From contig CACNYO010000001.1 in the NCBI GenBank assembly GCA_902624765.1, positions 29,907 to 93,906 of the forward strand: DNA of 64,000 bases. Direction: 5' to 3'. Numbering within the stretch: position 1 is the stretch's first letter; every line of letters starts with the position of its first letter. The translations under genes were made by a program, and so were the position numbers. The notes under the pieces were generated by a model that ran no database searches, was not told the origin of the DNA, and worked only from the letters and a program-made list of their open reading frames with translations. This DNA comes from an uncultured SAR86 cluster bacterium (GTDB taxonomy: Bacteria > Pseudomonadota > Gammaproteobacteria > Magnimaribacterales > AG-339-G14). Of this stretch, positions 8,390 to 48,485 are shown in pieces.

Positions 8390-10482
8390 AGCAACTATTT
8401 CAAAGCCTAAAAAATGGTCAACTTTATTTGGAGGACATTCCAAATAGAAAACCAGACAGCAATAATATCTGCATCAAAACAAGTATTTCATTATTGTCTC
8501 CAGGAACAGAGAAAATGCTTTTAGATTTTGGTAAGTCTGGGATCTTAAAAAAAGCACTTACGCAACCAGAAAGAGTTAAAGAAGTCATCAACAAAATGAA
8601 GATTGAGGGTGTATTTGAGACTTACCAGAAGGTCTTAAATAAATTGGATCAGCCAATTCCATTGGGTTATTGCAATGTTGGTATAGTTGAAAGCGTAGGT
8701 AAAGACGTAAAAAATTACAAAGTTGGCGATAGAGTAGTTTCTAATGGATTTCATGCAGAATTTGTCGAAGTTCCTGAAAATCTTTGCCAAAAAATTCCAG
8801 ATAATGTAACTGATGAACAAGCTGTGTTTACAATTTTGTCATCTATTTCTCTTCACGGGATAAGATTATCTGAGCCAACTTTAGGTGAAACTTATGTAGT
8901 TATTGGTATGGGTTTGGTCGGCCTTCTATGTACTGAGTTACTAATTTTAAATGGATGTAATGTTATAAGCGTAGATATTGATTCAAGCAGGCTTGAACAC
9001 GCTAAAAATCTTGGAGCTGAAACGGTGCACCTTTCTGAAAAGATGAATGTTGATGACGCAGTATCAGCTATATCCGGCAAACATGTAGTTGATGCTGTAA
9101 TTATTTCAACTTCTTCTCAATCAAGTGATCCAGTTGATATAGCAGCAAAAGTTTGCAGAAAAAAAGGAAGAATAATACTGGTTGGAACGGCAGATATTCG
9201 ATTTTCTAGACAAGATCTTTATGAAAAAGAAATAAGTTTTAAGGTTTCTAGTTCCTATGGACCAGGAAGATACGATAAAAATTATGAAGATAAATCAATT
9301 GATTATCCAATAGCATATGTAAGATGGACTCAAAATAGAAACTTTGAATCAATTCTTAATCTAATTGATAAGGGATCATTTAAGCCAGATAAACTAATTA
9401 CAGATAGATTTAATTTTGAAAATTTTGAGCAGGGCTATGAAGCACTCAATAAAAATAATTCTTTAGGTATTATTTTTCAATACAATCTGGAGAGTTCAGT
9501 TCAAAGAGATACTTTAGTACTAAATAACAAAACTAGCGCTCCTAAAGATTCAATGAAAGTTGATTTCATAGGTGCGGGAAACTATGCAACTTCTGTTCTC
9601 ATGCCTAAGTTAGAAAAAAATAATGTCGACTTCAATATGCTTTTGACAAAGTCGGGGTTAAATACTCCAAATGTTTTAAAGAAATATTCTTTCAATGGAG
9701 TTACAAGTAATGCTGATGAAATTTTCAAAAATGGAAATTCCGATATTGTTTTTGTAGCAAGCTCTCATTCTTCTCATGCAAAATTTTTAATACAAGCTAT
9801 TGAAGCAGACAAGAATATTTTTCTTGAGAAACCATTATGTATAAATTTTGAACAATTTAACGAGATTAAAAATAAAATAAATAATTCACCGCAATTACCT
9901 TCAATAATGATGGGGTTTAATAGGCGTTTTTCTCCTTTGGTACAAAAAATTAAAAATGTTCTTTCAACAAATAAATATCCACTAGCAATTGAGTACACTA
10001 TTAATGCAGGAAATATTTCAAATGATCATTGGATTCAGGATAAGGAGGAAGGAGGAGGAAGATTAATAGGAGAAGCATGTCATTTTATTGATTTAGCTGT
10101 TTTTCTAAGTGATTCTGATATTGATGATTATTCAGTTATGCACTCGGATGCTCTAAATAGGGATACCTTTTCAATTTCGGTAAAATTTAAAAACAGTTCC
10201 ATAGCTAATATCAATTACTTTTCAAATGGTAATTCAAAATATCCAAAAGAAATTCTAAAAGTATTTTTCAATGATAAAGTTATTGTTCTGGATAATTTTA
10301 AAAAGCTTAAATCTTATGGAGTCAAATCTTTAAAAAATATAAGTTATTTCAGCCAAAAGAAAGGACAAGCAGAGTGCATTAAAGGTTTTATAGAAACAAT
10401 TAAAAAGGGAGAAAGATCTCCTATAAAACTTCAAGAAATTTTGAAGGTTAGCGAGATTTCTCTTGAGCTCTCACATAATTGA
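8386..10482 (+). CDS. bi-domain oxidoreductase (Zn-alcohol-dehydrogenase-like N-half plus Gfo/Idh/MocA-like C-half)
   Basis: The MDR-like region has VIGMGLVGLL. The second Rossmann region is VDFIGAGNYA...EKPL. ATGA overlap with the asnB-like gene. Confidence 0.75.
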   Translation: MKQLFQSLKNGQLYLEDIPNRKPDSNNICIKTSISLLSPGTEKMLLDFGKSGILKKALTQPERVKEVINKMKIEGVFETYQKVLNKLDQPIPLGYCNVGIVESVGKDVKNYKVGDRVVSNGFHAEFVEVPENLCQKIPDNVTDEQAVFTILSSISLHGIRLSEPTLGETYVVIGMGLVGLLCTELLILNGCNVISVDIDSSRLEHAKNLGAETVHLSEKMNVDDAVSAISGKHVVDAVIISTSSQSSDPVDIAAKVCRKKGRIILVGTADIRFSRQDLYEKEISFKVSSSYGPGRYDKNYEDKSIDYPIAYVRWTQNRNFESILNLIDKGSFKPDKLITDRFNFENFEQGYEALNKNNSLGIIFQYNLESSVQRDTLVLNNKTSAPKDSMKVDFIGAGNYATSVLMPKLEKNNVDFNMLLTKSGLNTPNVLKKYSFNGVTSNADEIFKNGNSDIVFVASSHSSHAKFLIQAIEADKNIFLEKPLCINFEQFNEIKNKINNSPQLPSIMMGFNRRFSPLVQKIKNVLSTNKYPLAIEYTINAGNISNDHWIQDKEEGGGRLIGEACHFIDLAVFLSDSDIDDYSVMHSDALNRDTFSISVKFKNSSIANINYFSNGNSKYPKEILKVFFNDKVIVLDNFKKLKSYGVKSLKNISYFSQKKGQAECIKGFIETIKKGERSPIKLQEILKVSEISLELSHN

Positions 10483-12134
10483 TCTTGAAAATACTTTTCT
10501 TATACTTCTCAACAATTCTGCATTTGAAGAGAGTTCAAATCTTCAACAGATTTTTTAGAAAATTTAAATTCCTGAAATTAATAGATGAAAAAAATGTCCG
10601 TACTAAAAATTTACATTCGAAATTTCCATACATAAAAAATAAAACTTATTCTTTTCATGGAAAAGAGTTCATTTTTTTAAATAAAAGTCTTAAGTTTGAT
10701 GATAATTTTCTAAATCAATCAATTAAATATGAAAAATTGTGGAGATATAATCTTTATTATTTTGATTTTCTAAATTCAAAAGATTCAATGAAATTTAATG
10801 ATCAAAAAAAGGAGATCATTTATCTATTTATTTCAAACTATCAAAAGAATATTAAGCATGAATTTTATGATCCTTATCCTACATCTTTAAGGATTGTTAA
10901 TTTAATTAAATGGGTTGTAAATGAAAAGATTAATGACGACGCTATAACTAATTTTATTTATTTTCAAACAGAAATACTAAAACAAAAAATTGAGTATCAT
11001 TTACTTTGTAATCACTATTTTTCTAATCTAAAAGCTTTATCATTTTCCAGTATTTTTTTTGATCAATATAAGAATAATTCTTTTTCAAAAAAAATACATG
11101 AAGAGCTAGATAGTCAATTAGATGAGCAATTCTTTTTAGATGGAGGCCACTTCGAAGGTTCTCCTATGTACCATTCCATTATTGTTGAAGACTTATTAGA
11201 CATTCATAATCTTTATAGCTCAATTGAAGGTGATTGTTCAGATATTGATAATATCAATTCAAAACTAAGAAATATCATTCCTCTATCTATAGGTTGGTTA
11301 GAAAAAATGACGCATCCTAACAAAGAGATATCTTTTTTTAATGATTCTTCTTTGGGCATATCATTAAGTATAGAAGATATTAACACCTACGCAGCATCAC
11401 TTAACATTGATGATATTCAAGAAGAAAATTACTTGGAAAAAAATAATGTTTTATTAAATGGAAAAGAAAGTGGATATGTTGTTTGTAAAAATCAAAATTT
11501 TTATATTATTTTTGATACTGCAGATATAGGTCCTTCTTATAATCCTGGCCATTGCCATGCAGATTCTCTTTCTTTTGAACTTTCTTCATTTGGCCATAAA
11601 ATTTTTGTAAATAGAGGAACTTCAACTTACGAAAACACAGAAGAAAGAAATCTTATAAGATCTACAATTTCTCATAATACTGTTGTCATTGACGATAGAA
11701 ATTCTTCAGATGTTTGGTCATCTTTCAGGGTTGGCAAAAGAGCAAAAATAATTGATAGAGATTGTAAAAAGCAAGACCAAAAAATCATCATGACTGGTCA
11801 ACACGATGGGTATTCAAAATTTTTAAGCCCAGTATTTCATGAAAGAATTATCTCTTTTGATTTAGATGCCATAGAAATATATGATCAAGTGAGAGGAAGT
11901 ATTAACAAATCTCAAAGTATTCTTTTACTTCATCCAGACATAGACGTGCAAAGAATTGATTCACAAACTCTAGAACTAACTTTTTTTATGAGAAAATTGA
12001 TTTTAATTTCAGAAAACAATGTAGAAATAAATCCAGCTAAATATTCACCTATGTTTAATGAGGATTTAGATACAAAAAGATTATCGGTAAATTTTGAGAA
12101 TAATAATAAATCTATACTAAAAATAATATCTTGA
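10479..12134 (+). CDS. heparinase II/III-like (alginate-lyase superfamily) protein
   Basis: The C-terminal PGHCHADSLSFEL block is typical of the Hepar_II_III family. TTG start overlaps the upstream TGA. This start is less certain. Confidence 0.6.
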   Translation: MILKILFLYFSTILHLKRVQIFNRFFRKFKFLKLIDEKNVRTKNLHSKFPYIKNKTYSFHGKEFIFLNKSLKFDDNFLNQSIKYEKLWRYNLYYFDFLNSKDSMKFNDQKKEIIYLFISNYQKNIKHEFYDPYPTSLRIVNLIKWVVNEKINDDAITNFIYFQTEILKQKIEYHLLCNHYFSNLKALSFSSIFFDQYKNNSFSKKIHEELDSQLDEQFFLDGGHFEGSPMYHSIIVEDLLDIHNLYSSIEGDCSDIDNINSKLRNIIPLSIGWLEKMTHPNKEISFFNDSSLGISLSIEDINTYAASLNIDDIQEENYLEKNNVLLNGKESGYVVCKNQNFYIIFDTADIGPSYNPGHCHADSLSFELSSFGHKIFVNRGTSTYENTEERNLIRSTISHNTVVIDDRNSSDVWSSFRVGKRAKIIDRDCKKQDQKIIMTGQHDGYSKFLSPVFHERIISFDLDAIEIYDQVRGSINKSQSILLLHPDIDVQRIDSQTLELTFFMRKLILISENNVEINPAKYSPMFNEDLDTKRLSVNFENNNKSILKIIS

Positions 12135-22414: not shown

Positions 22415-23557
22415 TTAGCTTGTTTTTTCAAGAATATGGATTCCACAAGCAGTGCCTAAACCAATCACATGCGTCATTCCAATCTTTGCTCCTTCAACTT
22501 GTCTTTCTCCTGCTTCGCCTCTCAAGTGAGTACAAACTTCATAAATGTTTGCTATCCCAGTAGCCCCAAGAGGGTGACCTTTTGACAAAAGGCCTCCAGA
22601 AACATTTACTGGGACTTTCCCGCCAAGTTCTACGTGACCTTCATCAATCATTTTTCCAGCTTCTCCATCTTTACAAAGACCTAAATTCTCATAATGAAGC
22701 ATTTCAGCTGTAGCAAAACAATCATGCAACTCAACAAGATTGACATCTTCAGGACCAATTCCTGCTTGTTCATAAGCGTCTTTTGCCGCAAGCCTTGTGC
22801 AAGCATTAACATCTGGCATGACTAGGTCTCTATCAGTATATGGATCACTTGCCATTGCAGATGCTCTTACTTTTACCGCTCTTCTCATGCCAAGTTCTTT
22901 TGCCTTCTTTTCAGAAACGAGAACAGCAGCAGCAGAACCATCTACATTTACGGAACACATTAATTTGGTGTTTGGATAAGAGATCATTTCGGCATTCATC
23001 ACTTCATCAAGAGGAGTTTCAATTTGATACATTGCCTTAGGATTCATGGTTGAATGATGATGATTTTTAACTGATATTTTCGCAAATTGTTCAAAGGTTG
23101 TTCCGTATTCCTTTGCGTGTTCCATTCCAGCTTCTGCGAAAACACAGGGCATTGTTCCTGAGCCAAGCAATCCTTCTTTAGGGATTCCATCGCCACCGCC
23201 AGCACCTCCTAAGAGGCCTTTACCCATTTGTTCCACGCCAACAGCTAATACAACATCATACATTCCTGCTTTGATGGACATCCAAGCTTCTCTAAAAGCT
23301 GTAGCACCTGTCGCACAAGCATTCGCAACATTCACTACCGGCATTCCAGTTTGACCTATTTCTTGAAGAATTCTCTGTCCAACCATTGCATTTGCTTGTC
23401 CTAAATTTCCACAGTAAAGAGCTTGCATGTCTTGAATTCCTAATCCAGCATCATCCAATGCCATTAATGCAGCTTCTGCACCAATATTTGGAACACTTCT
23501 ATCAGGAAATCTTCCAAACTTAATCATATCAACACCCATTACATAAACATCACTCAT
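22415..23557 (-). CDS. thiolase-fold protein (SCP-x/lipid-transfer-type thiolase)
   Basis: The NACATGATA active-site Cys region, the C-terminal HDCF motif and a GLG..CG block indicate the thiolase fold. Paired with a DUF35 protein. Confidence 0.8.
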   Translation of the reverse strand: MSDVYVMGVDMIKFGRFPDRSVPNIGAEAALMALDDAGLGIQDMQALYCGNLGQANAMVGQRILQEIGQTGMPVVNVANACATGATAFREAWMSIKAGMYDVVLAVGVEQMGKGLLGGAGGGDGIPKEGLLGSGTMPCVFAEAGMEHAKEYGTTFEQFAKISVKNHHHSTMNPKAMYQIETPLDEVMNAEMISYPNTKLMCSVNVDGSAAAVLVSEKKAKELGMRRAVKVRASAMASDPYTDRDLVMPDVNACTRLAAKDAYEQAGIGPEDVNLVELHDCFATAEMLHYENLGLCKDGEAGKMIDEGHVELGGKVPVNVSGGLLSKGHPLGATGIANIYEVCTHLRGEAGERQVEGAKIGMTHVIGLGTACGIHILEKTS

Positions 23558-31938: not shown

Positions 31939-32217
31939 ATGGCAATAACTAAACTAGAATTAGCAAATCACTTACATAAAAAAATGGGTTTACCAAAAAA
32001 AGACTGCCTAGATTTTGTTAATTCTTTTTTTACTGAAATTTCTAATAGCCTTGAAAAAGGGGAAGAAGTAAAACTTAGTGGTTTTGGTAATTTTTCTCTG
32101 TTGAAAAAGAAAGCGCGTCCAGGCAGAAATCCTAAAACTGGTGAAGAATATGTAGTTTCTGCAAGAACTTCTATTTCTTTTAAACCTGGTCGAAAATTAA
32201 GGGAAAAAATTGTCTGA
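31939..32217 (+). CDS. ihfA: integration host factor alpha subunit
   Basis: HU/IHF fold with GFGNFSL..K.ARPGRNPKTGE. Sits in the canonical position after pheT. Confidence 0.85.
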   Translation: MAITKLELANHLHKKMGLPKKDCLDFVNSFFTEISNSLEKGEEVKLSGFGNFSLLKKKARPGRNPKTGEEYVVSARTSISFKPGRKLREKIV

Positions 32218-32539
32218 TATTGATTTTTCTTCATTGCCCAACAAAAAGTATTATTCAATTTCAGAAGTCTCGTCTCTACTTGGAATCAAGCAGACTGAAA
32301 TAAGATATTGGGAAAAATTTGAACCTAAATTAAGATCTAAAAGTATAACTAGATCCTACGATTTAAAAAAATTAAAACTTTTAATAGAAATAAAAAAACT
32401 TATCAAAGATCAAGGTATAAAACCTGCGAAAGTAAACCTTTATTTATCAAGTAAAAAGATCAGAAAATCAAATAATTTAGAAATCAAAAAAGAATTAACA
32501 AACATCAAGAATAGCATTAAAAAAGCTAGCAAACTTTAA
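32210..32539 (+). CDS. MerR-family helix-turn-helix transcriptional regulator (small)
   Basis: YSISEVSSLLGIKQTEIRYWEKF is an HTH typical of MerR. TTG start overlaps the ihfA end. The same position is occupied by a MerR-like gene after ihfA in pseudomonads, as far as I recall. Confidence 0.65.
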   Translation: MSDIDFSSLPNKKYYSISEVSSLLGIKQTEIRYWEKFEPKLRSKSITRSYDLKKLKLLIEIKKLIKDQGIKPAKVNLYLSSKKIRKSNNLEIKKELTNIKNSIKKASKL

Positions 32540-32578
32540 ATTAAATAGTATTATCAAATATAGGAAAAGGAGAAAAAT

Positions 32579-32815
32579 ATGAAAAATTATGGGTCAATAT
32601 TTTTAATTATCACATTTTTAGTTCTTGTTTCATGCGGAGGCGGAGGAGGTGGATCCTCTTCATCGGTTGGTTCATCAGGATCTTCATCAGGCTCAGGATC
32701 AGGTTCGGGAACAGGAGCTGGCACAGGTTCAGGAAGCTCTACCGGAACTTCAAGCGATATTAATCCAGCAGATTATGTTCTTCCGACAAAAGTTGAAGCA
32801 ATCAAAGTAGAGTAA
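32579..32815 (+). CDS. small lipoprotein with a 40-residue Gly/Ser/Thr linker
   Basis: Signal peptide plus lipobox LVS-C19, and an AAGGAG SD 7 nt upstream. The mature part is G/S/T/A only until the last 19 aa (DINPADYVLPTKVEAIKVE). Confidence 0.7.
   Translation: MKNYGSIFLIITFLVLVSCGGGGGGSSSSVGSSGSSSGSGSGSGTGAGTGSGSSTGTSSDINPADYVLPTKVEAIKVE
32636..32755 (+). repeat. low-complexity G/S-coding tract (cryptic short GGn/TCn/AGC repeats) inside the lipoprotein gene
   Basis: Reiterated ggatc/tcagg/ggttc units encode GGGGGGSSSSVGSSGSSSGSGSGSGTGAGTGSGSSTGTSS. The tract also creates a spurious alternative-frame ORF (32625-32810). Confidence 0.8.
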
Positions 32816-32832
32816 ATCAATAGAGGATAGTT

Positions 32833-35800
32833 ATGAAAATTTTTTACATTATATTTATTTTTTTATCCGTAACGGCTTTTTCACAAAGCTATTCAGAAGA
32901 TAAAGTTGAAATCTATACGGCAAATAATCAAGTTGAGGAAACACTCAACACGGCTAACAATATTCTTTGCATAATTTCCAAGATTAAAGCAGAGCAGTTC
33001 ATAGATAAGGGTCCTTACAAGGCCCAACTCTATGACAGTAGATGTGATACTGCTGGCGCAAGAGCTGATGCTCAAGCTGCGGCACAAGGAGGTCAACAGC
33101 AGTCGGCGGCGCCGGATATTGAAATTGCTAGCACTATGATTGTGGATGTTAAAAGCGCATTTAGCGAAGTTCAAAATACAGATTATCTTGAAGTTAAATC
33201 ATGGTTTTACATGGAAGGAGATTATTCAGAGGCACAAGAGTCTTACGAAGGAATGTGGGATCAAGAACCTGATCAGCTAATTTATGTTTTAACAAAAGTA
33301 TGGTCGGGGGCAACAGAAGAAGATCCTAATGGTGACCTGGAGTTGGATTTTGTAGTGGAATCTAATTGTAAAAATGCTCCTTATCAAGAATACGATGAAG
33401 CCGTAGCCGCAGCTGCAGAAGCAGGCGTGGAGGAAGGCACGCGAGCATTTTGGGAATTCACGGATCAATTTTGGAAATGTCCTCCAATAGGCTATCAGAT
33501 GGGAGCTGGAAAGCTTGATACAACCGACGACAAGGTTTTATTCCTAGGTCCTCAAGGAAGAAGCATTCAACTTACTGAAAACGCCAACGGTAGAGATGGA
33601 GTATGGCAACAAACATATGTAGAATGCATTATAGACGGTGCTCACGTCCAGTACCAAAATCAAGAAGCTGCGGGCTGTGGCGAGACCAGTGATCAAAATC
33701 CTAATTGGTGGTTTGTAGACACTTCTTTAGGTTTTTCTTTCGATGAAACCACAAAAGCATCCTGTAAAAAAATGGTTCAAGCTACCAGAAGACAGTTCGA
33801 TGGTGAGCAACAGGTAGAAACGGATGTTACTGAAGACTGGAAAGCTATCGATTGGAATATTGAACAATATCCCTGGTTGGCAATGGATGGTCCAGCCCAA
33901 GGTATAACTGAGGTTTGTGAATCAACCGCAGCAGAAGATGCTAAGTTAGCTGTATGGGAGTATGGTTTATACACTACGGCTGATGATCTTAGATACGACT
34001 TAAGCAAACCAGGATTTGAACTTAAGTCCGATGAAGAATTTCCTGATCCATACAATGAAGGCAGCACTCATCCCATCTATGCTTGGGCTGACTACTGGGG
34101 AACGCATGTTGGGGAAGAGTGGCGAGAGAATCTTACTGAAACCACAGCTTTCTCTAAAGTAAATTCCGACGACACTGGAACTTACACCCTTAAGCAAAGA
34201 AAAATGAGTCTTCGAAAAATGTCAGTTGACAACGTTTCTTTAGATAGTCTTTCAGGTGTTGAGCTAAACCTGCATATTGAGTGGGACCTTAAGCAAATTG
34301 GCGATGAATGTTGGTGGAATAGGACTGACAACGGAGGATACAGGTTCACCGGCATGATGGATGGAACTAAGCCTGTTCTCAGATCTGCTCTAGATAGGGA
34401 TGGTGATGGAGAAGACGACCGTTGTGATAGGGAAAGATGGCAAAAACTTGGAGTTCCTGTTGGTTCGGTTGATGAAAATGGAAATCCATATACTATATTT
34501 TTGGGTTACTGGGATGCCACTGCAGCACTAGATGGATCTACTGCGGTGGGACAATTTATTTTTGATACCGCGGTAGTTCAAGTCAATAATCGTTGGGTAG
34601 ATGAAGTAGATATCACTCCTTTCGCTTTTACTCCTGCCGAATACTTAGCTGCCTGGGATGATAATTTAGACAGTAGCGATGGCTATGAAGTTTGGAGAAA
34701 TCTTTGGGCTCATGGAAGAGGTCAAGGGTATGAAATTAAAGGGGACGCGCTAGCAGCGCCAGATACGCCACTTGTAAAAAGACGAACAGAAAAGGATCTC
34801 ACTGCAAGCGACATAAGCGGCCTTACTCTAGGTTGCATTGAAAGATGTCTTTCTGGAGCTAGCATGAAACAGTATTTCGATGAGGCTCTAGCGCTTATTG
34901 CAACAGGCACTGCAGAAAACCCTGCTACTGGAAACGTTACCAATCCTTATACCAGTCCAGCAAAATTAGGTGGAGATGCCAGTGCAATCCAAACGGGACC
35001 TTATGTAAGAAGTGGCGATAGAAAAGGGGACTGGACTCAAGAAGGTGTTCTATCTGGAGAGGTGGTTAAGTATCAAGCTTCCACAGACACACTAGTCGTT
35101 ATCGCCGAACAAGATGCTTCTCAAACTCCTCTTGCACTTCCAGCAAAAATGTATGAGCTCGGTAATCCTTGGGAATACTTTGAAGGGAACATATGCATTC
35201 TTCAGCCTAATGGTATAGATACCGATTGTTGGGGGATGAAGAACCACATGACTTTGTTTGACATGGCAAATATTGCAGACGTTGAATGTGAAAAAACTCG
35301 TGATACAGATGCGGATGGTAAAGGAGACGCCTATGAAATTCATGAATCATCCATAGTTCAAAATTCAGAACAATTAAGATTATGTTCAAATAAATTATGG
35401 CAAATGGATGAATTTTACGAAGTTCATTGGGATTCGTGGGTCAACTATCAAGTTTATGATTCTGCAGGTGCCCTTGTAGAGATCTCAAGACCTGAAGGCG
35501 TCACTCTAAGCTTGCCGAAAGATCAAGCCAAATACGGTAAAGATGCTGGTAAGAAAAAGACTCTTGAATACGCCGGATTTGGAAGACTTCATGGATTCGA
35601 ATGGACTAACTTCGACATTAAAAATTGGGTTGATAAAGGTGAATATTTTGACTGGAATAGTGCCACTGAAGAGGAAAGACAAAATATTAGAGGCTTTCCA
35701 ACCTATGTTATTCCCAACGGAACTATTGTGATGGCACAAGACGGTGAAACAGAATTGAAATCAAAATTTTTGAGAGGAGAATATTACCTAAAACCTCTCG

Positions 35801-35970
35801 ATGCTAGTTTGTATGACAATTTATACACCACAAATCCGCAAGTACTAGTGGGTTTACGACCCGAGGTTTACGACACAGCATTCATAGGCCCCGTGCCTGA
35901 TGATTCACTTCTTCTTAACGGAGGTGAAGCTTGTGTTGACCACGGTGAGATAATAGCCGCTTGTCAATAA
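32833..35970 (+). CDS. large secreted protein of unknown function (acidic, Trp-rich, 18 Cys, two DxDxDG Ca-loop-like motifs)
   Basis: 1045-aa ORF with a GAGGA SD and a signal peptide (…LSVTAFS|QS). No other hydrophobic segments. [12 protein letters not shown] (34393-34428) and [12 protein letters not shown] (35302-35337). I recognise no named domain. Confidence 0.8.
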
Positions 35971-35998: not shown

Positions 35999-36077
<79 letters not shown>

Positions 36078-36085
36078 AAATTTAT

Positions 36086-37258
36086 ATGGAAAGAAAGTAT
36101 CAGATAATTATTTATGGAGCCACAGGATTTACTGGAAGGCTTTGTGCTCAATACTTCAATACCAATTATCCTAATCTAAAATGGGCAATTGCTGGCAGAG
36201 ACTCAAAAAAATTAGAAAATCTTAAATCTGAATTAGGCCTAGATTGCGATAGCTTTGTTGCCTCGGCTAATGATATAGAAGCTATTAATAATTTTGTTTC
36301 GTTAACTAAAGTAGTATTGTCCACCGCTGGCCCGTTCGCTCGTTATAGTGATGAAGTAGTCAGGTCCTGTGTCAAATATAAAACTCATTACACTGACATA
36401 ACCGGAGAAAATCATTGGGTGAAAGACCTAATTGATGAACATCACATTAAAGCATCTGAGGACGATACAAGAATTATTCCTTCATGTGGTTACGATTCTA
36501 TTCCTTCTGATATGGGTGTCTTTTACTCAATTCAACAAATGGGAAAGTCCGTTAAAAAAATCACAGTGTATCATTCAGGTCAAGGAGGGGTAAGTGGGGG
36601 CACAACTGAAACAATGTTTACTATTGGACCCCTTCCAAAAGAAAAAAGAGATCCCTTTCTCTTAAATCCACAAAATAGTGTTTCGGAAATTCAAAGGAAA
36701 CTCAGTAAAGATGGTTTTGAAATCAAACAAATAGAAAATACAGATTCATATTCAGGCATCGGTTTGATGTCTTTTGCAAACACAAGAGTCGTAAGACGAA
36801 GTTCAGCTTTATATGATGAAGATCAAAGGAGTTATGGTTCTGATTTCATTTTTAAAGAGCTTGGAAGTTATCCATCAAAAAGATCGGCAAGATTGGCAAG
36901 TTTCGGATTGATATTTGCTTTTTTAATAATCTCAACACCCTTAAGGCATATAATAAGGAGATTTTTGCCTAAACCAGGAGAAGGTCCTGATGAAGAAACC
37001 CGTGAAAATGGTTGGTTTAAAGGATTATTTAAGGTTGAGGCTGCAGATGGAGAAATTAAATACTTTCAGATTTACGGAGAAGGAGATCCAGGTTACAAAG
37101 CTACAGCTCAGATGGTTTGCGAGTCTGCTATGACTCTAGCTATTTCTGATGAACTTGAGACTGGAGGGGTTTTAACTTCTGCCTACGGACTAGGCAATCC
37201 ACTATTAAAGAGGTTGATTAAGTCTGGAATAAAATTTGAGGAAGTTATTTATAACTAA
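36086..37258 (+). CDS. saccharopine dehydrogenase-like NAD(P)-binding oxidoreductase family protein
   Basis: [15 protein letters not shown] Rossmann N-terminus and overall family resemblance. The start is taken at MERKYQ. The track's longer ORF begins inside the tRNA. Confidence 0.7.
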
Positions 37259-39281: not shown

Positions 39282-40499
39282 TTAAAAACCAAAGTCCCAA
39301 GAGAGGCCTTCGTGGTATTTTTTTAAGATTTCCTTTGCTATTAAGACCCTATGAACCTCATCAGGTCCATCAGCAAGTCTTAGCGTTCTCGCTCCCTGAT
39401 ACATTCCTGCTAGAGGTAGGTCAGATGAAACGCCTTTCCAGCCATATACTTGAATCGCTCTGTCTACAACTTTGTGCATAGCATTTGGGACGTATACTTT
39501 TAGGGCGGAGATATCAACCCTTGGATTACCCTCGGCTTCCATTACTTCCGCACAATGAATAGTCATAAGTCTAGCTGTTTGAATGTCAATATAGGAGTCA
39601 GCGATAAAGCCTTGAATTAGTTGCTTAGTTTCTAATTTTCCACCATGAACTTCTCGTTCAATAGTTCTTTTGAGCATTAAATCAAAAGCTCGCCACATTT
39701 GCCCTATTGAATTCATACAATGAAAAACCCTACCTGCACCCAATCTATCTTGAGCAGCCTGGTGACCAGATCCTCTTGCTCCAAGAGTATTCTCTATTGG
39801 AACCCTGACATTCTCATATTTAATTTCTACATGATCTCCCCCGGTATGTCCCCATATCGGTACCGATCTAACAATATTAAATCCTTCTGAGTCTGTGGGG
39901 ACAATAATTTGAGACATTCTTGAATTAACTCCCCCAGATCCATCATCTTCCTCTGTTCTGCACATGACAATGGCAAAGTCAGCTCTGATGCCATTAGATG
40001 TCATAACTTTGTGACCATTAATTATCCAGTCATCACCATCTTTTTTTGCAGTAGTTTTAATTGATCTTGGATCTGAGCCAGCATTATCAGGCTCAGTCAT
40101 GGAAAAGCATGATTCCATTTCTCCCTCTATCAATGGGAGCAGCCATTTTTTCTTTTGTTCGTCAGAGCCATATTTTAGGAGAACTTTTTGATTACCCGAA
40201 TTAGGAGCTATGACACCAAAAAGTCTGTTAGATAAAGGAGACCAGGCTAAGATTTCATTCATATAGGCATGAGCTATGAAGCCTATTCCCATTCCTCCAT
40301 ACTCTTCTGGTAGATGAGGAGCCCACAGTTTCTGGTTTTTTACTTCCTGTCTAATATCCTCTCTGAGAGATTTAGATTTATCTCCTCCCGAATAAATATC
40401 TTTTTCGTTGGGAATAATATGTTCAGCAACAATATTTGCTGTTCTGTTTCTTATATCATTTACATCTTCTGAAAGTGTAGGTATTGGTTTTATTTCCAT
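39282..40499 (-). CDS. acyl-CoA dehydrogenase
   Basis: CFSMTEPDNAGSD, a middle beta-domain, and a C-terminal helical domain with ...RLADGPDEVH. Confidence 0.85.
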   Translation of the reverse strand: MEIKPIPTLSEDVNDIRNRTANIVAEHIIPNEKDIYSGGDKSKSLREDIRQEVKNQKLWAPHLPEEYGGMGIGFIAHAYMNEILAWSPLSNRLFGVIAPNSGNQKVLLKYGSDEQKKKWLLPLIEGEMESCFSMTEPDNAGSDPRSIKTTAKKDGDDWIINGHKVMTSNGIRADFAIVMCRTEEDDGSGGVNSRMSQIIVPTDSEGFNIVRSVPIWGHTGGDHVEIKYENVRVPIENTLGARGSGHQAAQDRLGAGRVFHCMNSIGQMWRAFDLMLKRTIEREVHGGKLETKQLIQGFIADSYIDIQTARLMTIHCAEVMEAEGNPRVDISALKVYVPNAMHKVVDRAIQVYGWKGVSSDLPLAGMYQGARTLRLADGPDEVHRVLIAKEILKKYHEGLSWDFGF

Positions 40500-40580: not shown

Positions 40581-41180
40581 ATGAAGGAAGTAGATTTTTA
40601 TTTTGATTTTGCAAGTCCAAATGCCTATCTTTCTTTAATGGCTGGAAAAGAGCTTGAAGATAAGTTGGGTTTTAAATTCAATATTAAATTAGCTTTACTT
40701 GGAGGCATATTTAAGTTGACTAATAATCAACCTCCAATGGTCGCTTTTGCGGGAATCAAAAATAAACTTGATTATGACGGTGTGGAAATGCAGAGGTTTA
40801 TTAACAAACACAATCTTTCAGACTTTAAAATGAATCCAAACTTTCCAGTGATTACTCTTCAGATTATGAGAGCAGCAGTTGTTGCTGAAAAAGAAGGTTT
40901 TTTGATGGACTATGTTCAAAAAATTACAAAATCTATGTGGGAAAGAGAAAAGAAAATGGATGATCCTGAGGTCATCAAGACTGAATATGATCATTGGGGT
41001 TTTGATTCTTCTTTATTAATGGATGGTATGAATGATCCTGATATTAAATCCTCTTTGATGGATAAAACTTCTGAGGCAGTAGAAAGGGGAGTTTTTGGAA
41101 TCCCAACTTTCTTTGTAGGTGAAGAAATGTTTTTTGGAAAAGATAGGTTAGGGCAAGTTGAGGAAGAAATCCTTAAGTAA
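40581..41180 (+). CDS. 2-hydroxychromene-2-carboxylate isomerase/DsbA-like thioredoxin-fold protein
   Basis: VDFYFDFASPNAYL N-terminus and GVFGIPTFFVGEEMFFGKDRL C-terminus. Confidence 0.75.
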   Translation: MKEVDFYFDFASPNAYLSLMAGKELEDKLGFKFNIKLALLGGIFKLTNNQPPMVAFAGIKNKLDYDGVEMQRFINKHNLSDFKMNPNFPVITLQIMRAAVVAEKEGFLMDYVQKITKSMWEREKKMDDPEVIKTEYDHWGFDSSLLMDGMNDPDIKSSLMDKTSEAVERGVFGIPTFFVGEEMFFGKDRLGQVEEEILK

Positions 41181-43997: not shown

Positions 43998-45401
43998 ATG
44001 GCAAAAAAAGGTTACAGAGAAGAATCGGACAGCATTGGAATAGTTTATGTTCCTAGAAAAGCTTTATACGGTGCACAAACTCAAAGAGCAATAGACAACT
44101 TTCCAGTAAGCGGAATTAAAATGGATTTTCCTTTTACCAAATCTTTTGTCAGCTCCTTAGGAATGATTAAAGATGCTGCAGCCAAAGCTAATCATAAATT
44201 GAAGCTTCTTTCCAATAAGAAGGCCAGAGCAATATCAAAGGCTTCTAAGGAGGTATGGCAAGAAAAACATCATAAAGAGTTTCCTATCGATGTCTTTCAA
44301 ACAGGATCTGGAACCAGTTCGAATATGAATGCAAACGAGGTTATAGCTAATTTAGCATCAGCATTTTCTGGTGAAGAGGTTAGCCCGAACGATGACGTTA
44401 ACATGTCTCAAAGCAGCAATGATGTGATACCAACTGCAATAAAAATCAGTGCACATATGGATTTAACTAAAAAGTTATACCCCAACTTAGAAAACCTTAT
44501 TAATGCAATCGATAAAAAAGCAGTTTCTGTCAGAGGGATAATAAAAACAGGAAGAACTCATCTCATGGATGCAATGCCTGTAGATTTAGCTGATGAATTA
44601 TCTGCGTGGTCCAGTCAATTAAAGACTTCTCTAAAAGCTTTAAAATTTATCGAGGCTAGACTTTTGGAGCTTCCTCAAGGCGGAACAGCTGTTGGAACAG
44701 GAATTAATGCTCACAAAAGATTTGCTAAAGTTTTTGCTCAGGAAATCTCCAAGTTGTCTGGGAACAAATATAGAAGTGTTGCAAGTGATAATTTCTTTCA
44801 TGAGTTAAGTTCTCAAGATACATCAGTACAATTGTCTGGCGAACTTAAAAACTTAGCTGTTGCTTTGATGAAGATTTCAAATGATTTGCGATGGATGAAC
44901 AGTGGACCTTTAGCGGGACTATCAGAGATAGAACTTCAGGCTTTGCAACCAGGTAGTAGTATTATGCCAGGCAAGGTAAATCCAGTGATTCCTGAAGCTG
45001 TAACCATGGTTTCTGCAGATGTTATAGGAAATGATGTGAGCATTACAGTTGCAGCGCAAGCAGGTAACTACCAGTTAAATGTTATGCTTCCCGTTATAGC
45101 CTATAACTTACTTAAAAGTATTAACCTCCTCTCAGGTGCTTGCGATGTTCTTGCTAACAAAGCAATTAAAACCTTCAAGGTGAATAAAAAGAATTTGGAA
45201 TCGTCTTTGGCAAAAAATCCAATACTCGTAACAGCCCTCAATCCAATTATTGGTTACAAGAAAGCTGCTGCAATTGCTAAAAAAGCTTACAAAGAGAATA
45301 GACCGATCATTGATGTTGCTGCTGAAGAGACAAACCTTTCCGTAACAAGATTAAAGAAATTATTAGATCCAGCTAAGCTCGCAAAGGGTGGAATCCAATG
45401 A
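43998..45401 (+). CDS. fumC: class II fumarate hydratase
   Basis: GAQTQRA, QTGSGTSSNMNANEV, SQSSNDVIPTA, GRTHLMDAMP, GGTAVGTGINAH and the signature GSSIMPGKVNP. Confidence 0.9.
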   Translation: MAKKGYREESDSIGIVYVPRKALYGAQTQRAIDNFPVSGIKMDFPFTKSFVSSLGMIKDAAAKANHKLKLLSNKKARAISKASKEVWQEKHHKEFPIDVFQTGSGTSSNMNANEVIANLASAFSGEEVSPNDDVNMSQSSNDVIPTAIKISAHMDLTKKLYPNLENLINAIDKKAVSVRGIIKTGRTHLMDAMPVDLADELSAWSSQLKTSLKALKFIEARLLELPQGGTAVGTGINAHKRFAKVFAQEISKLSGNKYRSVASDNFFHELSSQDTSVQLSGELKNLAVALMKISNDLRWMNSGPLAGLSEIELQALQPGSSIMPGKVNPVIPEAVTMVSADVIGNDVSITVAAQAGNYQLNVMLPVIAYNLLKSINLLSGACDVLANKAIKTFKVNKKNLESSLAKNPILVTALNPIIGYKKAAAIAKKAYKENRPIIDVAAEETNLSVTRLKKLLDPAKLAKGGIQ

Positions 45402-47018: not shown

Positions 47019-48485
47019 ATGTTGCGGCTTAAAGAAACAGCTCTAACCTTTGACGACGTCTTATTGCTCCCTGACTATTCAGAAGTCTTGCCCAATAACG
47101 TTGATTTAACCACACGTCTGACAAAAAACCTAAGCATAAACATTCCAATAATTTCTTCTGCTATGGATACCGTCACTGAATCCAGAATGGCTATTGCTTT
47201 GGCAGAGCTTGGAGGTATAGGAATCATTCACAGGAACTTAAGCATTACAGATCAAGCTAACGAAGTTCGGGCAGTGAAAAAATTTGAGAGCGGCATTGTA
47301 AGAGATCCAACAACTATCTCATCAAGCAGCACGGTTGGTGACCTTATTCAGCTAACTAAAGAATTAAACATCTCTGGTATGCCTGTGGTGGACGATGACA
47401 ATCTGGTTGGAATTGTAACCTCCAGGGATTTTCGTAATGAATCAAATATGACAGCCACCGTAAGTTCGATTATGACCCCGAAAGAAAAACTTATTACGGC
47501 TAAAGAGAGCGAAAGCATTGATAATATAAAAACCTTACTCTATCGAAATAGAATAGAAAAAATATTGCTTGTTGATGACACTTTTGGTCTGAAGGGTCTA
47601 ATCACTCTGAAAGATATAAATAAATCAAAAGATTATCCATCTGCAACCAAGGACTCAGAGGGGAGACTTCTAGTTGGCGCAGCAATCGGTAATGCTACCG
47701 ATACAGAAGAAAGAACTGAAAAACTTGTTCAAGCCGGTGTCGATGTTCTCGTTGTTGATAGCGCCCATGGACACTCACAAGGCATTTTAGACAGAGTAAA
47801 AAAAGTAAAAAAAGACTATCCAAATATAGATGTCATTGGTGGCAATGTTGCCACTGCAGAAGGAGCTACAGCCTTAATGAAAGCAGGAGCTGATGGAGTG
47901 AAAGTTGGTATTGGGCCAGGTTCTATATGCACTACGAGAATTGTGACAGGAGTTGGTGTTCCCCAAATAACAGCTATTGCAGATGTGGTATCAAGCACGA
48001 AGAAAAAAGGAATTCCAGTTATTGCAGATGGTGGAATTAGATTCTCTGGTGATTTTGCCAAAGCAATTGCTGCAGGAGCAGACAGTGTCATGCTAGGTAG
48101 CATCTTGGCTGGAACAGAAGAAGCTCCTGGTCAGGTAGAACTCTTTCAAGGCAGAAGCTATAAAGCATATAGAGGTATGGGATCTGTTGGCGCAATGTCA
48201 GGTGAATCCTCCTCTGGGGATAGATATTTTCAGGACAATCAACAAACCGATAAACTGGTACCCGAAGGCATAGAGGGAAGAGTCCCCTATAAGGGTTGGG
48301 TAGAAACTACCATTCATCAAATGCTAGGCGGCCTAAGACAAAGCATGGGCTACACTGGATGCAAAGATATCGATACGATGAAAACTAAACCTAAGTTTGT
48401 TCAAATCACTACTTCTGGAATGAACGAGAGTCACGTGCATGACGTCAGTGTTACTAAAGAAGCGCCAAATTACCGAATTACCTAA
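47019..48485 (+). CDS. guaB: IMP dehydrogenase
   Basis: [17 protein letters not shown]-terminus, a CBS pair, and the catalytic loop [11 protein letters not shown]. Confidence 0.95.

Follow-up and report, generated by a model that had tools for sequence, protein, structure and literature searches.

In a 64,000-nucleotide stretch of contig CACNYO010000001.1 from an uncultured SAR86 cluster bacterium (hereafter the window), two co-oriented open reading frames (ORFs) lie between a small MerR-family gene and a tRNA-Pro gene. ORF1 (32579-32815, + strand) encodes a lipoprotein of 78 amino acids (aa), and ORF2 (32833-35970, + strand), which starts 17 nucleotides (nt) after ORF1, encodes a protein of 1045 aa that we refer to as the head. 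Together they probably constitute a two-gene tether-and-head module of the cell envelope, in which a C-terminal tag on the lipoprotein docks the head non-covalently. The preliminary description of this DNA had placed two ORFs with Shine-Dalgarno sequences of their own between merR and tRNA-Pro, and the coordinates bear this out: AAGGAG is found at 32567-32572 (+ strand; read in the sequence), 6 nt before the ATG at 32579, and GAGGA at 32823-32827 (+ strand), 5 nt before the ATG at 32833.

According to the mechanism that we propose, Sec would export both proteins, after which ORF1 would be lipidated at Cys19 and sorted to the outer membrane, and ORF2 would fold outside the cytoplasm into a large, beta-rich and disulfide-stabilised head. 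The C-terminal tag of ORF1 (roughly 14-19 residues) would bind the head non-covalently as an ordered extended segment, and the flexible linker of about 40 residues would keep it leashed to the membrane. Elsewhere in the family the three elements reside in one polypeptide, or the tag ends a long stalk lipoprotein built of cadherin or Ig domains; the tag would thus be a portable docking element and the head the conserved functional unit.

Gene pairing and the lipid-anchored tag

A word-indexed search identified 40 full-length relatives of ORF2, which form three SAR86 clades. Clade A shares 62-89% identity with ORF2, clade B about 42% (proteins of about 1070 aa) and clade C about 35% (36%; proteins of about 1003 aa). 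Two or three of these clades can occur in a single SAR86 genome (up to three paralogs). A small lipoprotein is encoded directly upstream of the head gene in 15/15 syntenic clade-A loci and also in the 36%-identity paralog clade C, and split pairs were found in several marine and soil lineages as well, a co-occurrence on which the tether hypothesis of the preliminary description depended.

The layout of ORF1 was found as it had been described. It consists of a signal peptide with a lipobox (MKNYGSIFLIITFLVLVS followed by Cys19; 32579-32635, the Cys19 codon being 32633-32635), a 40-aa linker of G, S, T, A and V that is predicted to be disordered (residues 20-59; 32636-32755), and a 19-aa C-terminal peptide, the putative docking tag DINPADYVLPTKVEAIKVE (32756-32815 including the stop codon; all on the + strand). 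LVS-C19 fits the lipobox pattern [LVI][ASTVI][GAS]-C and stands behind a hydrophobic h-region; L-V-S-C is kept in 17 SAR86 orthologs and paralogs, and the GGGGG after it in all SAR86 orthologs. The linker is free to vary among orthologs in length and composition (G/S-rich in general, N-rich in L005 and made of TD repeats in L011). The clade-A tag is nearly invariant in 15 orthologs (I[ND]P[AS][DQN][YF][VI][LV]P.KVEAI[KA]V[ED]), the head proteins of which are only 62-96% identical; the tag of the clade-C lipoprotein reads INPTAYKLPKKIKVVEIEQ. Under the rule known from E. coli, a Gly at position +2 after the lipidated Cys means no retention in the inner membrane and default sorting by Lol to the periplasmic face of the outer membrane, and the Gly at +2 of ORF1 implies that it would be sorted to the outer membrane. 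Pfam and NCBIfam searches with ORF1 gave low-complexity matches only, far under the family cut-offs. The best library match was NCBIfam NF038033 (FEA1-related lipoprotein; 25.3 bits against a cut-off of 250), with which ORF1 shares a signal peptide, a lipobox and a G/S-rich start; this assignment was rejected, since the match is limited to profile positions 5-56 of 406 and is of low complexity, and an FEA1 domain is absent from ORF1.

In fused relatives both proteins are joined in one chain: the lipobox and a G/S linker lead to 'ALTVA.KVSVVDA', and about 20-30 spacer residues separate this tag from a region homologous to ORF2 (e.g. in Geobacteraceae L026, Nitrospirota L027 and P0156, P0184, P0187, P0188, P0167 and P0180). 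An hhalign comparison of the SAR86 family (A1) with 77 fused proteins (A4) gave a probability of 99.9% and an E-value (E) of 4e-33 over 698 aligned columns. ORF2 residue 18, the mature N-terminus, pairs with fused residue 65 in this alignment, which makes the fused residues 1-64 the counterpart of ORF1.

A metagenome scan with the fused/split subgroup yielded 409 relatives, and 80 loci were classified by script and then by eye. About 59 carry the tag in cis and about 11 in trans, two are unclear and the rest are truncated (about 72 classifiable loci). Of the cis loci 37 show the simple lipobox-linker-tag order, and the remainder have extra N-terminal domains. In the trans loci the tag ends a small upstream lipoprotein (e.g. 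...GVATPSSVSVVTATNAQ) and the head has its own signal peptide. Split pairs are also present in Andreprevotia chitinilytica (a 67-aa lipoprotein ending ...IAVAQQVSVVDAK) and in Dongshaea marina (a 66-aa lipoprotein ending ...GLESPAAVEVVSET, 18 nt before the head gene), and on a Tara contig the upstream partner is a mini-lipoprotein of 56 aa. In marine gammaproteobacterial relatives the partner can be much larger: cadherin/Big_9 lipoproteins of 810 aa and 867 aa end ...GYKVPTSIDVIETKE and ...GYKLPKAIKVIETS, respectively, and an Ig-like partner protein ends ...GFALPKLVNIIETKE, each just before a head gene, with gaps of 2-5 nt. The marine gammaproteobacterial contig L111, which carries the 867-aa cadherin lipoprotein, also encodes a second large lipoprotein directly downstream of the same head gene (L111:9453-11978; 842 aa up to the contig end, starting LVSCGGGGG...).

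The pattern h-x-h-[PA]-x-x-[VI]-x-[VA]-[VI] is thus found on a lipid anchor in cis or in trans, ORF1 itself ending ...YVLPTKVEAIKVE. Judged by sequence, the tag is a portable element, always on a lipid anchor and adjacent to the head, be it in the same chain or in the next gene. Such a pattern of fusion and fission supports the idea of a tether. The proposal that the small lipoprotein tethers the large protein as a functional pair agrees both with the co-occurrence of the genes and with the fused relatives that combine lipobox, linker, tag and head in one chain, and at the level of sequence comparison we consider the tether interpretation strongly supported.

Other explanations of the tag and of the split were considered. 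The tag is internal in fused forms, which rules it out as a C-terminal sorting signal. A split caused by a frameshift or by an assembly or sequencing error is ruled out by the genuine signal peptides of the split heads and by the recurrence of the split in many independent genomes, 15 of them single-cell genomes. Covalent attachment, by an isopeptide or a disulfide bond, is not favoured, as the different types of tag have no conserved Cys, Lys, Asp or Asn in common. The spacer between tag and head in fused forms (e.g. KIVPLRFAALSLPANS and PLKIGFFAALASGFSGT; L026:4821-7247, P0184, P0187 and other cis forms) is hydrophobic with small residues at its end. Its resemblance to a decayed signal peptide hints that some fused genes may have arisen by fusion of a split pair.

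We modelled both forms with AlphaFold2. The model of the fused Geoanaerobacter protein P0187 (77 sequences) had a mean predicted local distance difference test score (pLDDT) of 87.1 and a predicted template modelling score (pTM) of 0.84. Its signal peptide and linker (residues 1-28) score below 50, the tag block (residues 31-40) 92, residues 41-50 72, the spacer (residues 51-60) 52 and the body above 80. An ordered tag between disordered stretches is what a docked segment would be expected to look like; this feature of the model is supportive rather than decisive. For ORF2 the model (40 sequences) is beta-rich, with a pLDDT of 74, a pTM of 0.61 and a poorly defined N-terminus (pLDDT 28-59 for residues 1-60, with no tag in the model).

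Several observations weigh against the module as proposed. In the P0187 model the tag is not a regular beta-strand by DSSP, so that what might be called strand complementation may instead be binding in a groove. The SAR86 tags (YVLPTKVEAIKVE) and the cis tags (ALTVA.KVSVVDA) have only the short pattern in common, and their proposed equivalence relies on their position and on the intermediate forms. Clade B heads (L001, L019-L022, L024) have an SPase-I (signal peptidase I) signal peptide and no tag-bearing lipoprotein within about 5 kb; the tether is therefore not obligatory, and these heads are either untethered or have a partner that is encoded elsewhere. A lipoprotein with Gly at +2 would by default face the periplasm in Proteobacteria. 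Outside SAR86 the neighbours of the head gene are not conserved (NicO-like, BamD/RecO, GGDEF, DedA, abhydrolase and others) and give no hint of what the head does. The analysis shows the pairing of the genes, the conserved tag, its equivalence in cis and in trans, the homology of the heads and the order of the tag in the fused model. Docking in trans, non-covalent binding, the outer-membrane or surface location and the function of the head are what we infer from the features described here.

The head protein and its family

ORF2 starts with an SPase-I type signal peptide (32833-32883, + strand; predicted cleavage before Q18), followed by the mature head (residues 18-1045; 32884-35970 including the stop codon, + strand), which is acidic, rich in Trp and Tyr, predicted to be beta-rich and contains 18 Cys. 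By inspection the signal peptide has the n-h-c organisation with small residues at -3/-1, in line with export by Sec and cleavage by SPase-I. There is no further hydrophobic or transmembrane segment, and the highest Kyte-Doolittle value of a 19-aa window outside residues 1-30 is 1.06. The mature protein has a pI of 4.28, and Trp makes up 3.2% of ORF2 against 0.8% in the other long ORFs of the window. Computation thereby confirmed the signal peptide, the acidity, the richness in Trp, the 18 Cys and the two DxDxDG motifs that had been noted before. Within the SAR86 family Q18 and Y20 hardly vary.

The two DxDxDG motifs start at residues 521 (loop 1, residues 521-532; 34393-34428, + strand) and 824 (loop 2, residues 824-835; 35302-35337, + strand). 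Within 40 sequences of the SAR86 family D521, D528, D529, R530 and C531 are invariant in loop 1, and D824 and Y834 in loop 2, with T822, G829 and D832 nearly so. The loops are not among the residues that are conserved family-wide, and TSP_3, EF-hand and other calcium-binding profiles did not match ORF2 or its relatives even at E = 1. A dependence on calcium, if any, would be a feature of the lineage, because the loops are conserved in the SAR86 paralogs and not across the whole family.

No catalytic or named domain had been recognised in ORF2 before, and none emerged here: searches of Pfam, NCBIfam and PDB sequences with ORF2 gave nothing, and Foldseek gave no confident match. A Foldseek comparison of the ORF2 and P0187 models with PDB and BFVD returned no fold match, the PDB matches having a probability of at most 0.21, a template modelling score (TM) of at most 0.1 on the query and a root-mean-square deviation above 14 A. 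The matches to BauA and VDAC had E-values of 0.09-0.4 only and a TM of at most 0.08 on the query. We rejected a TonB-dependent receptor or other outer-membrane beta-barrel as an identity for ORF2; there is no such Pfam match, and the C-terminus reads ...IIAACQ.

When 1.84 billion cluster representatives were searched exhaustively with phmmer, 205 members of the head family were found at E <= 1e-3, each representing a cluster at 50% identity. Some of them are full-length (660-1490 aa, with 26-33% identity), and they belong to Proteobacteria, Desulfobacterota, Nitrospirota and Planctomycetota (those with a name are from Geoanaerobacter pelophilus, Dongshaea marina, Thiothrix, Burkholderiales, Nitrospirota, Deltaproteobacteria, Desulfofervidus and Planctomycetota). 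The large domain is homologous across the SAR86, marine, beta/gamma-proteobacterial and fused clades. A homolog search with a broad alignment mostly returned the SAR86 set again. As the family is large and widespread, the pair is not the orphan it was taken for.

The named members are labelled no more specifically than 'hypothetical protein', 'Lipoprotein' or 'putative periplasmic or secreted protein', and no description of the family turned up in literature searches that covered metaproteomics and hypothetical proteins of SAR86 as well as strand complementation by lipoproteins. Pfam, NCBIfam and PDB sequence searches with distant relatives and with whole-family profiles gave no match save for accessory domains. 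For instance, a Pfam scan placed a Calx-beta domain inside some marine heads (P0055, P0066), and some cis forms (L074; P0278, P0282, P0298 and others) have a PF18998 InlB B-repeat (precomputed Pfam column) or a dockerin-like repeat before the tag. Among 52 diverse members that were scanned one by one against Pfam at E = 1, we found no recurrent family and no profile of a carbohydrate-active enzyme (CAZyme) or peptidase.

Alignment of 162 sequences from all clades revealed 41 columns that are at least 90% conserved. Many are of a structural kind: seven Cys (46, 71, 362, 668, 672, 819, 851), ten Gly, three Pro and several aromatic or aliphatic positions. The conserved polar and aromatic residues are seven Tyr, D23, N42, R387, R953 and K978, and there is no His, Ser or Glu among these columns, which disfavours an active site of the hydrolase type. 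A binding site lined by Tyr, Arg and Lys would fit this set. Our best guess is that the head is a surface-displayed module that binds a ligand (a glycan or another polymer) or is adhesive, rather than a hydrolase.

Alternative readings and precedents

It is possible, though rather unlikely in our view, that the same tether is periplasmic, the head hanging from the inner leaflet of the outer membrane, much as in LpoA/LpoB-type lipoproteins with their long disordered linkers, and acting on a component of the envelope. This would agree with the Gly at +2 of ORF1, the default for Lol sorting to the periplasmic face, with the Sec signal of ORF2, next to which no secretion signal is recognisable, and with the lack of adjoining secretion-system genes in any locus examined. 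The many disulfides would also fit folding by DsbA, a DsbA-like gene being present at 40581-41180. We nevertheless favour display at the surface because of the adhesin-type domains on the partners and stalks: the cadherin/Big_9 modules of the 810-867 aa lipoproteins, the InlB B-repeat (PF18998), the dockerin-like repeat and Calx-beta are typically extracellular or found in adhesins, and stalks of such length fit poorly in the periplasm.

Less likely still, the tethered head would be an enzyme from a new family, such as a polysaccharide lyase or another CAZyme on a beta-propeller or beta-sandwich, with which SAR86 would process polymers before TonB-dependent uptake. The non-significant Foldseek matches are mostly to CAZymes and beta-propellers (GH32, GH43, PL8 xanthan lyase, alginate lyase, GH31, GH36 and S9 peptidase propellers), but all of them are as weak as described above. 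Polysaccharide lyase mechanisms accommodate residue sets of Tyr, Arg, Lys and Asn, and the conserved residues of the head would be compatible with such chemistry. In addition, three paralogs persist in a streamlined genome. Against an enzyme speak the lack of a conserved His, Glu or Ser, the absence of any CAZyme or peptidase profile among the 52 diverse members at E = 1, and the lack of linked transporter or catabolic genes.

We consider it very unlikely that the tag serves as a folding aid, comparable to a steric chaperone or a pro-peptide, with the head being released afterwards instead of tethered. The position of the tag beside the N-terminus of the head, in cis or in trans, would suit such a role, as would non-covalent docking, which permits release. 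Moreover, the N-terminus of ORF2 modelled without a tag scores far lower (pLDDT 28-59) than the equivalent region of the fused protein with its tag (84-93). This contrast is confounded by the depth of the alignments (40 vs 77 sequences), and the tag is always lipid-anchored, directly or via a stalk, which would be needless for folding.

The tether-and-head module that we prefer has its closest precedent, by analogy, in the type V pilins. These are outer-membrane lipoproteins in which a short, lipidated N-terminal anchor strand beside the lipid Cys is part of the fold, keeps the subunit on the membrane and stays non-covalently bound after cleavage of a loop; base and stalk pilins each give a C-terminal strand to the subunit that follows (PMC13655056). 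The SAR86 pair looks like this cleaved state encoded in two genes, with a lipidated peptide and a body. The head family would share the logic of these pilins, but not the fold, the operon or the taxonomy. The type V pilins FimA and Mfa1, with their anchors FimB and Mfa2, are from Bacteroidota, whereas the head family is found in Proteobacteria, Nitrospirota and Desulfobacterota. There is no relation in sequence or fold: no pilin matched in Pfam, and FimA or Mfa is not among the top 50 Foldseek PDB matches listed for either model. The head loci lack a polymerising subunit, pilin-like neighbours, gingipain-type processing and a fim/mfa-like operon, and ORF1 has no folded domain.

In donor-strand complementation of chaperone-usher pili a peptide given in trans completes or occupies a groove of a beta-rich subunit. 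Here too a segment would be supplied in trans by another polypeptide, but there are no adjacent chaperone or usher genes and no Ig-like pilin fold, the donor would be the C-terminus of a lipoprotein, and DSSP gives no regular strand. In outer-membrane lipoproteins whose disordered linkers are long, such as the LpoA/LpoB type, and in single-chain surface lipoproteins (TbpB, fHbp, SusE/F-like), the functional module always shares one chain with a lipobox and a flexible linker of low complexity. The fused members of the head family combine the same parts; the difference is that the linker protein may also be a separate gene that bears only the docking tag. In the cohesin-dockerin system, which has calcium loops, a portable docking element joins a secreted protein non-covalently to a cell-bound scaffold. 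Likewise, various anchors and stalks would hold a secreted partner here, and ORF2 has motifs that resemble calcium loops. The putative docking peptide is, however, about 14 residues long and not one half of a folded pair, and no cohesin or dockerin profile matched ORF1 or ORF2.

Non-covalent anchoring to a lipid-anchored partner is thus a known principle; new are the head family and its predicted fold, which have no known relatives. SAR86 bacteria are among the most abundant uncultured marine heterotrophs and have a streamlined genome, yet they keep up to three unannotated paralogs of roughly 1000 aa. The family extends over at least four phyla, and its fused and split forms predict a specific interaction between a protein and a peptide. 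Cultured hosts (Andreprevotia chitinilytica DSM 18519, Dongshaea marina and Geoanaerobacter pelophilus) make these predictions tractable. If docking is true, the short tag is a candidate for a natural peptide-protein capture pair and the head a new candidate for how oligotrophic bacteria engage polymers or surfaces. More tentatively, and with the odds against it, one might envisage a general system of diderm bacteria for display and possibly release, in which a portable peptide of ~14 residues on any lipid-anchored stalk captures a secreted head of novel fold. Fusion would then make the leash covalent and permanent, fission would make it non-covalent and hence exchangeable or sheddable, and the three SAR86 head paralogs would be major surface proteins that capture dissolved or particulate organic matter.

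Inheritance and genomic setting

The preliminary description had considered ORF2 compositionally unusual and possibly acquired horizontally. The first point holds in part. Among the 52 long ORFs in the window (mean 0.328, sd 0.037) ORF2 has the highest guanine plus cytosine (GC) content, 0.421, but housekeeping genes reach this level too and the codon usage of ORF2 is within range. Near-equal values were found for guaB, encoding IMP dehydrogenase (0.416), the thiolase gene (0.414) and the acyl-CoA dehydrogenase gene (0.397), and the GC-rich genes of the window besides ORF2 (22415-23557, - strand; 47019-48485, + strand; 39282-40499, - strand; 43998-45401, + strand) encode ordinary housekeeping enzymes (thiolase, IMP dehydrogenase, acyl-CoA dehydrogenase and fumarase C). 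GC at the third codon position is 0.312 in ORF2 against 0.248 +/- 0.032, with two window genes higher. NCG codons account for a fraction of 0.115 (0.067 +/- 0.041 for comparison), and by its distance from the remaining window in relative synonymous codon usage (RSCU) ORF2 ranks 41st of 52. The excess resides mainly in the first two codon positions; the residues A, G, D, E, T, Q and W are abundant in ORF2, while I, K, F, N and L are scarce, and the GC excess is mostly a matter of amino-acid composition. The lowest-GC kilobase of the window (10001-11000; 0.249) lies within a block that had been described as glycan loci.

The arrangement thrS...pheT-ihfA-merR-lipoprotein-head-tRNA-Pro-saccharopine-dehydrogenase is present in 15 SAR86 genomes, and the SAR86 orthologs of the head gene all share the GC excess (0.39-0.42 against 0.35 in the flanks). 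On the basis of this synteny and the common excess over the flanks, the pair is vertically inherited in SAR86. The closest genome is the SAR86 single-cell assembly AG-453-B11 (96% amino-acid identity). That the pair is a horizontally acquired orphan islet inserted beside tRNA-Pro, as the top GC value in the window (0.421 vs a mean of 0.328) and the adjoining tRNA gene might suggest, has next to no chance of being right and is refuted by the composition and synteny tests, on a criterion that the preliminary description itself had set: the same neighbours flank the locus in 15 genomes with heads diverged to 62% identity, the excess is common to all orthologs and lies mainly in the first two codon positions, the guaB, thiolase and acyl-CoA dehydrogenase genes have an equal GC content, the RSCU distance is ordinary, and the pair sits 5' of the tRNA gene, whereas integrative elements insert at the 3' end of tRNA genes.

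Upstream of the pair, ihfA (31939-32217) is followed by the small MerR-family gene (32210-32539, + strand; 109 aa; Pfam MerR_1, E 4.5e-9), which overlaps the end of ihfA, as it does in L004-L018. A MerR-family ortholog of 109-112 aa directly precedes the lipoprotein gene in 15/15 syntenic SAR86 loci. A scan for promoters and terminators was uninformative.

Downstream, tRNA-Pro(GGG) (36001-36077, + strand) begins 30 nt past the stop codon of ORF2, and it directly follows the head gene in all ten clade-A loci checked (10/10). A distinct isoacceptor, tRNA-Pro(UGG), follows the clade-C head gene (L023:8009-8085; L003:7134-7210), so that both SAR86 clades with a paired lipoprotein (A and C) lie immediately 5' of a tRNA-Pro gene. 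Clade B head genes have no adjoining tRNA, and no tRNA-Pro was found beside the head gene in the non-SAR86 loci checked. The adjacency in clades A and C may stem from co-transcription or from an ancient duplication of a segment with the tRNA gene in it. The DsbA-like gene (+ strand) lies 4.6 kb downstream of ORF2. The saccharopine-dehydrogenase-like gene (36029-37258) has a program-called TTG start at 36029 that overlaps tRNA-Pro; the ATG at 36089 (MERKYQ...), counted from which the Pfam Sacchrp_dh_NADP match begins at residue 6, is the plausible start.

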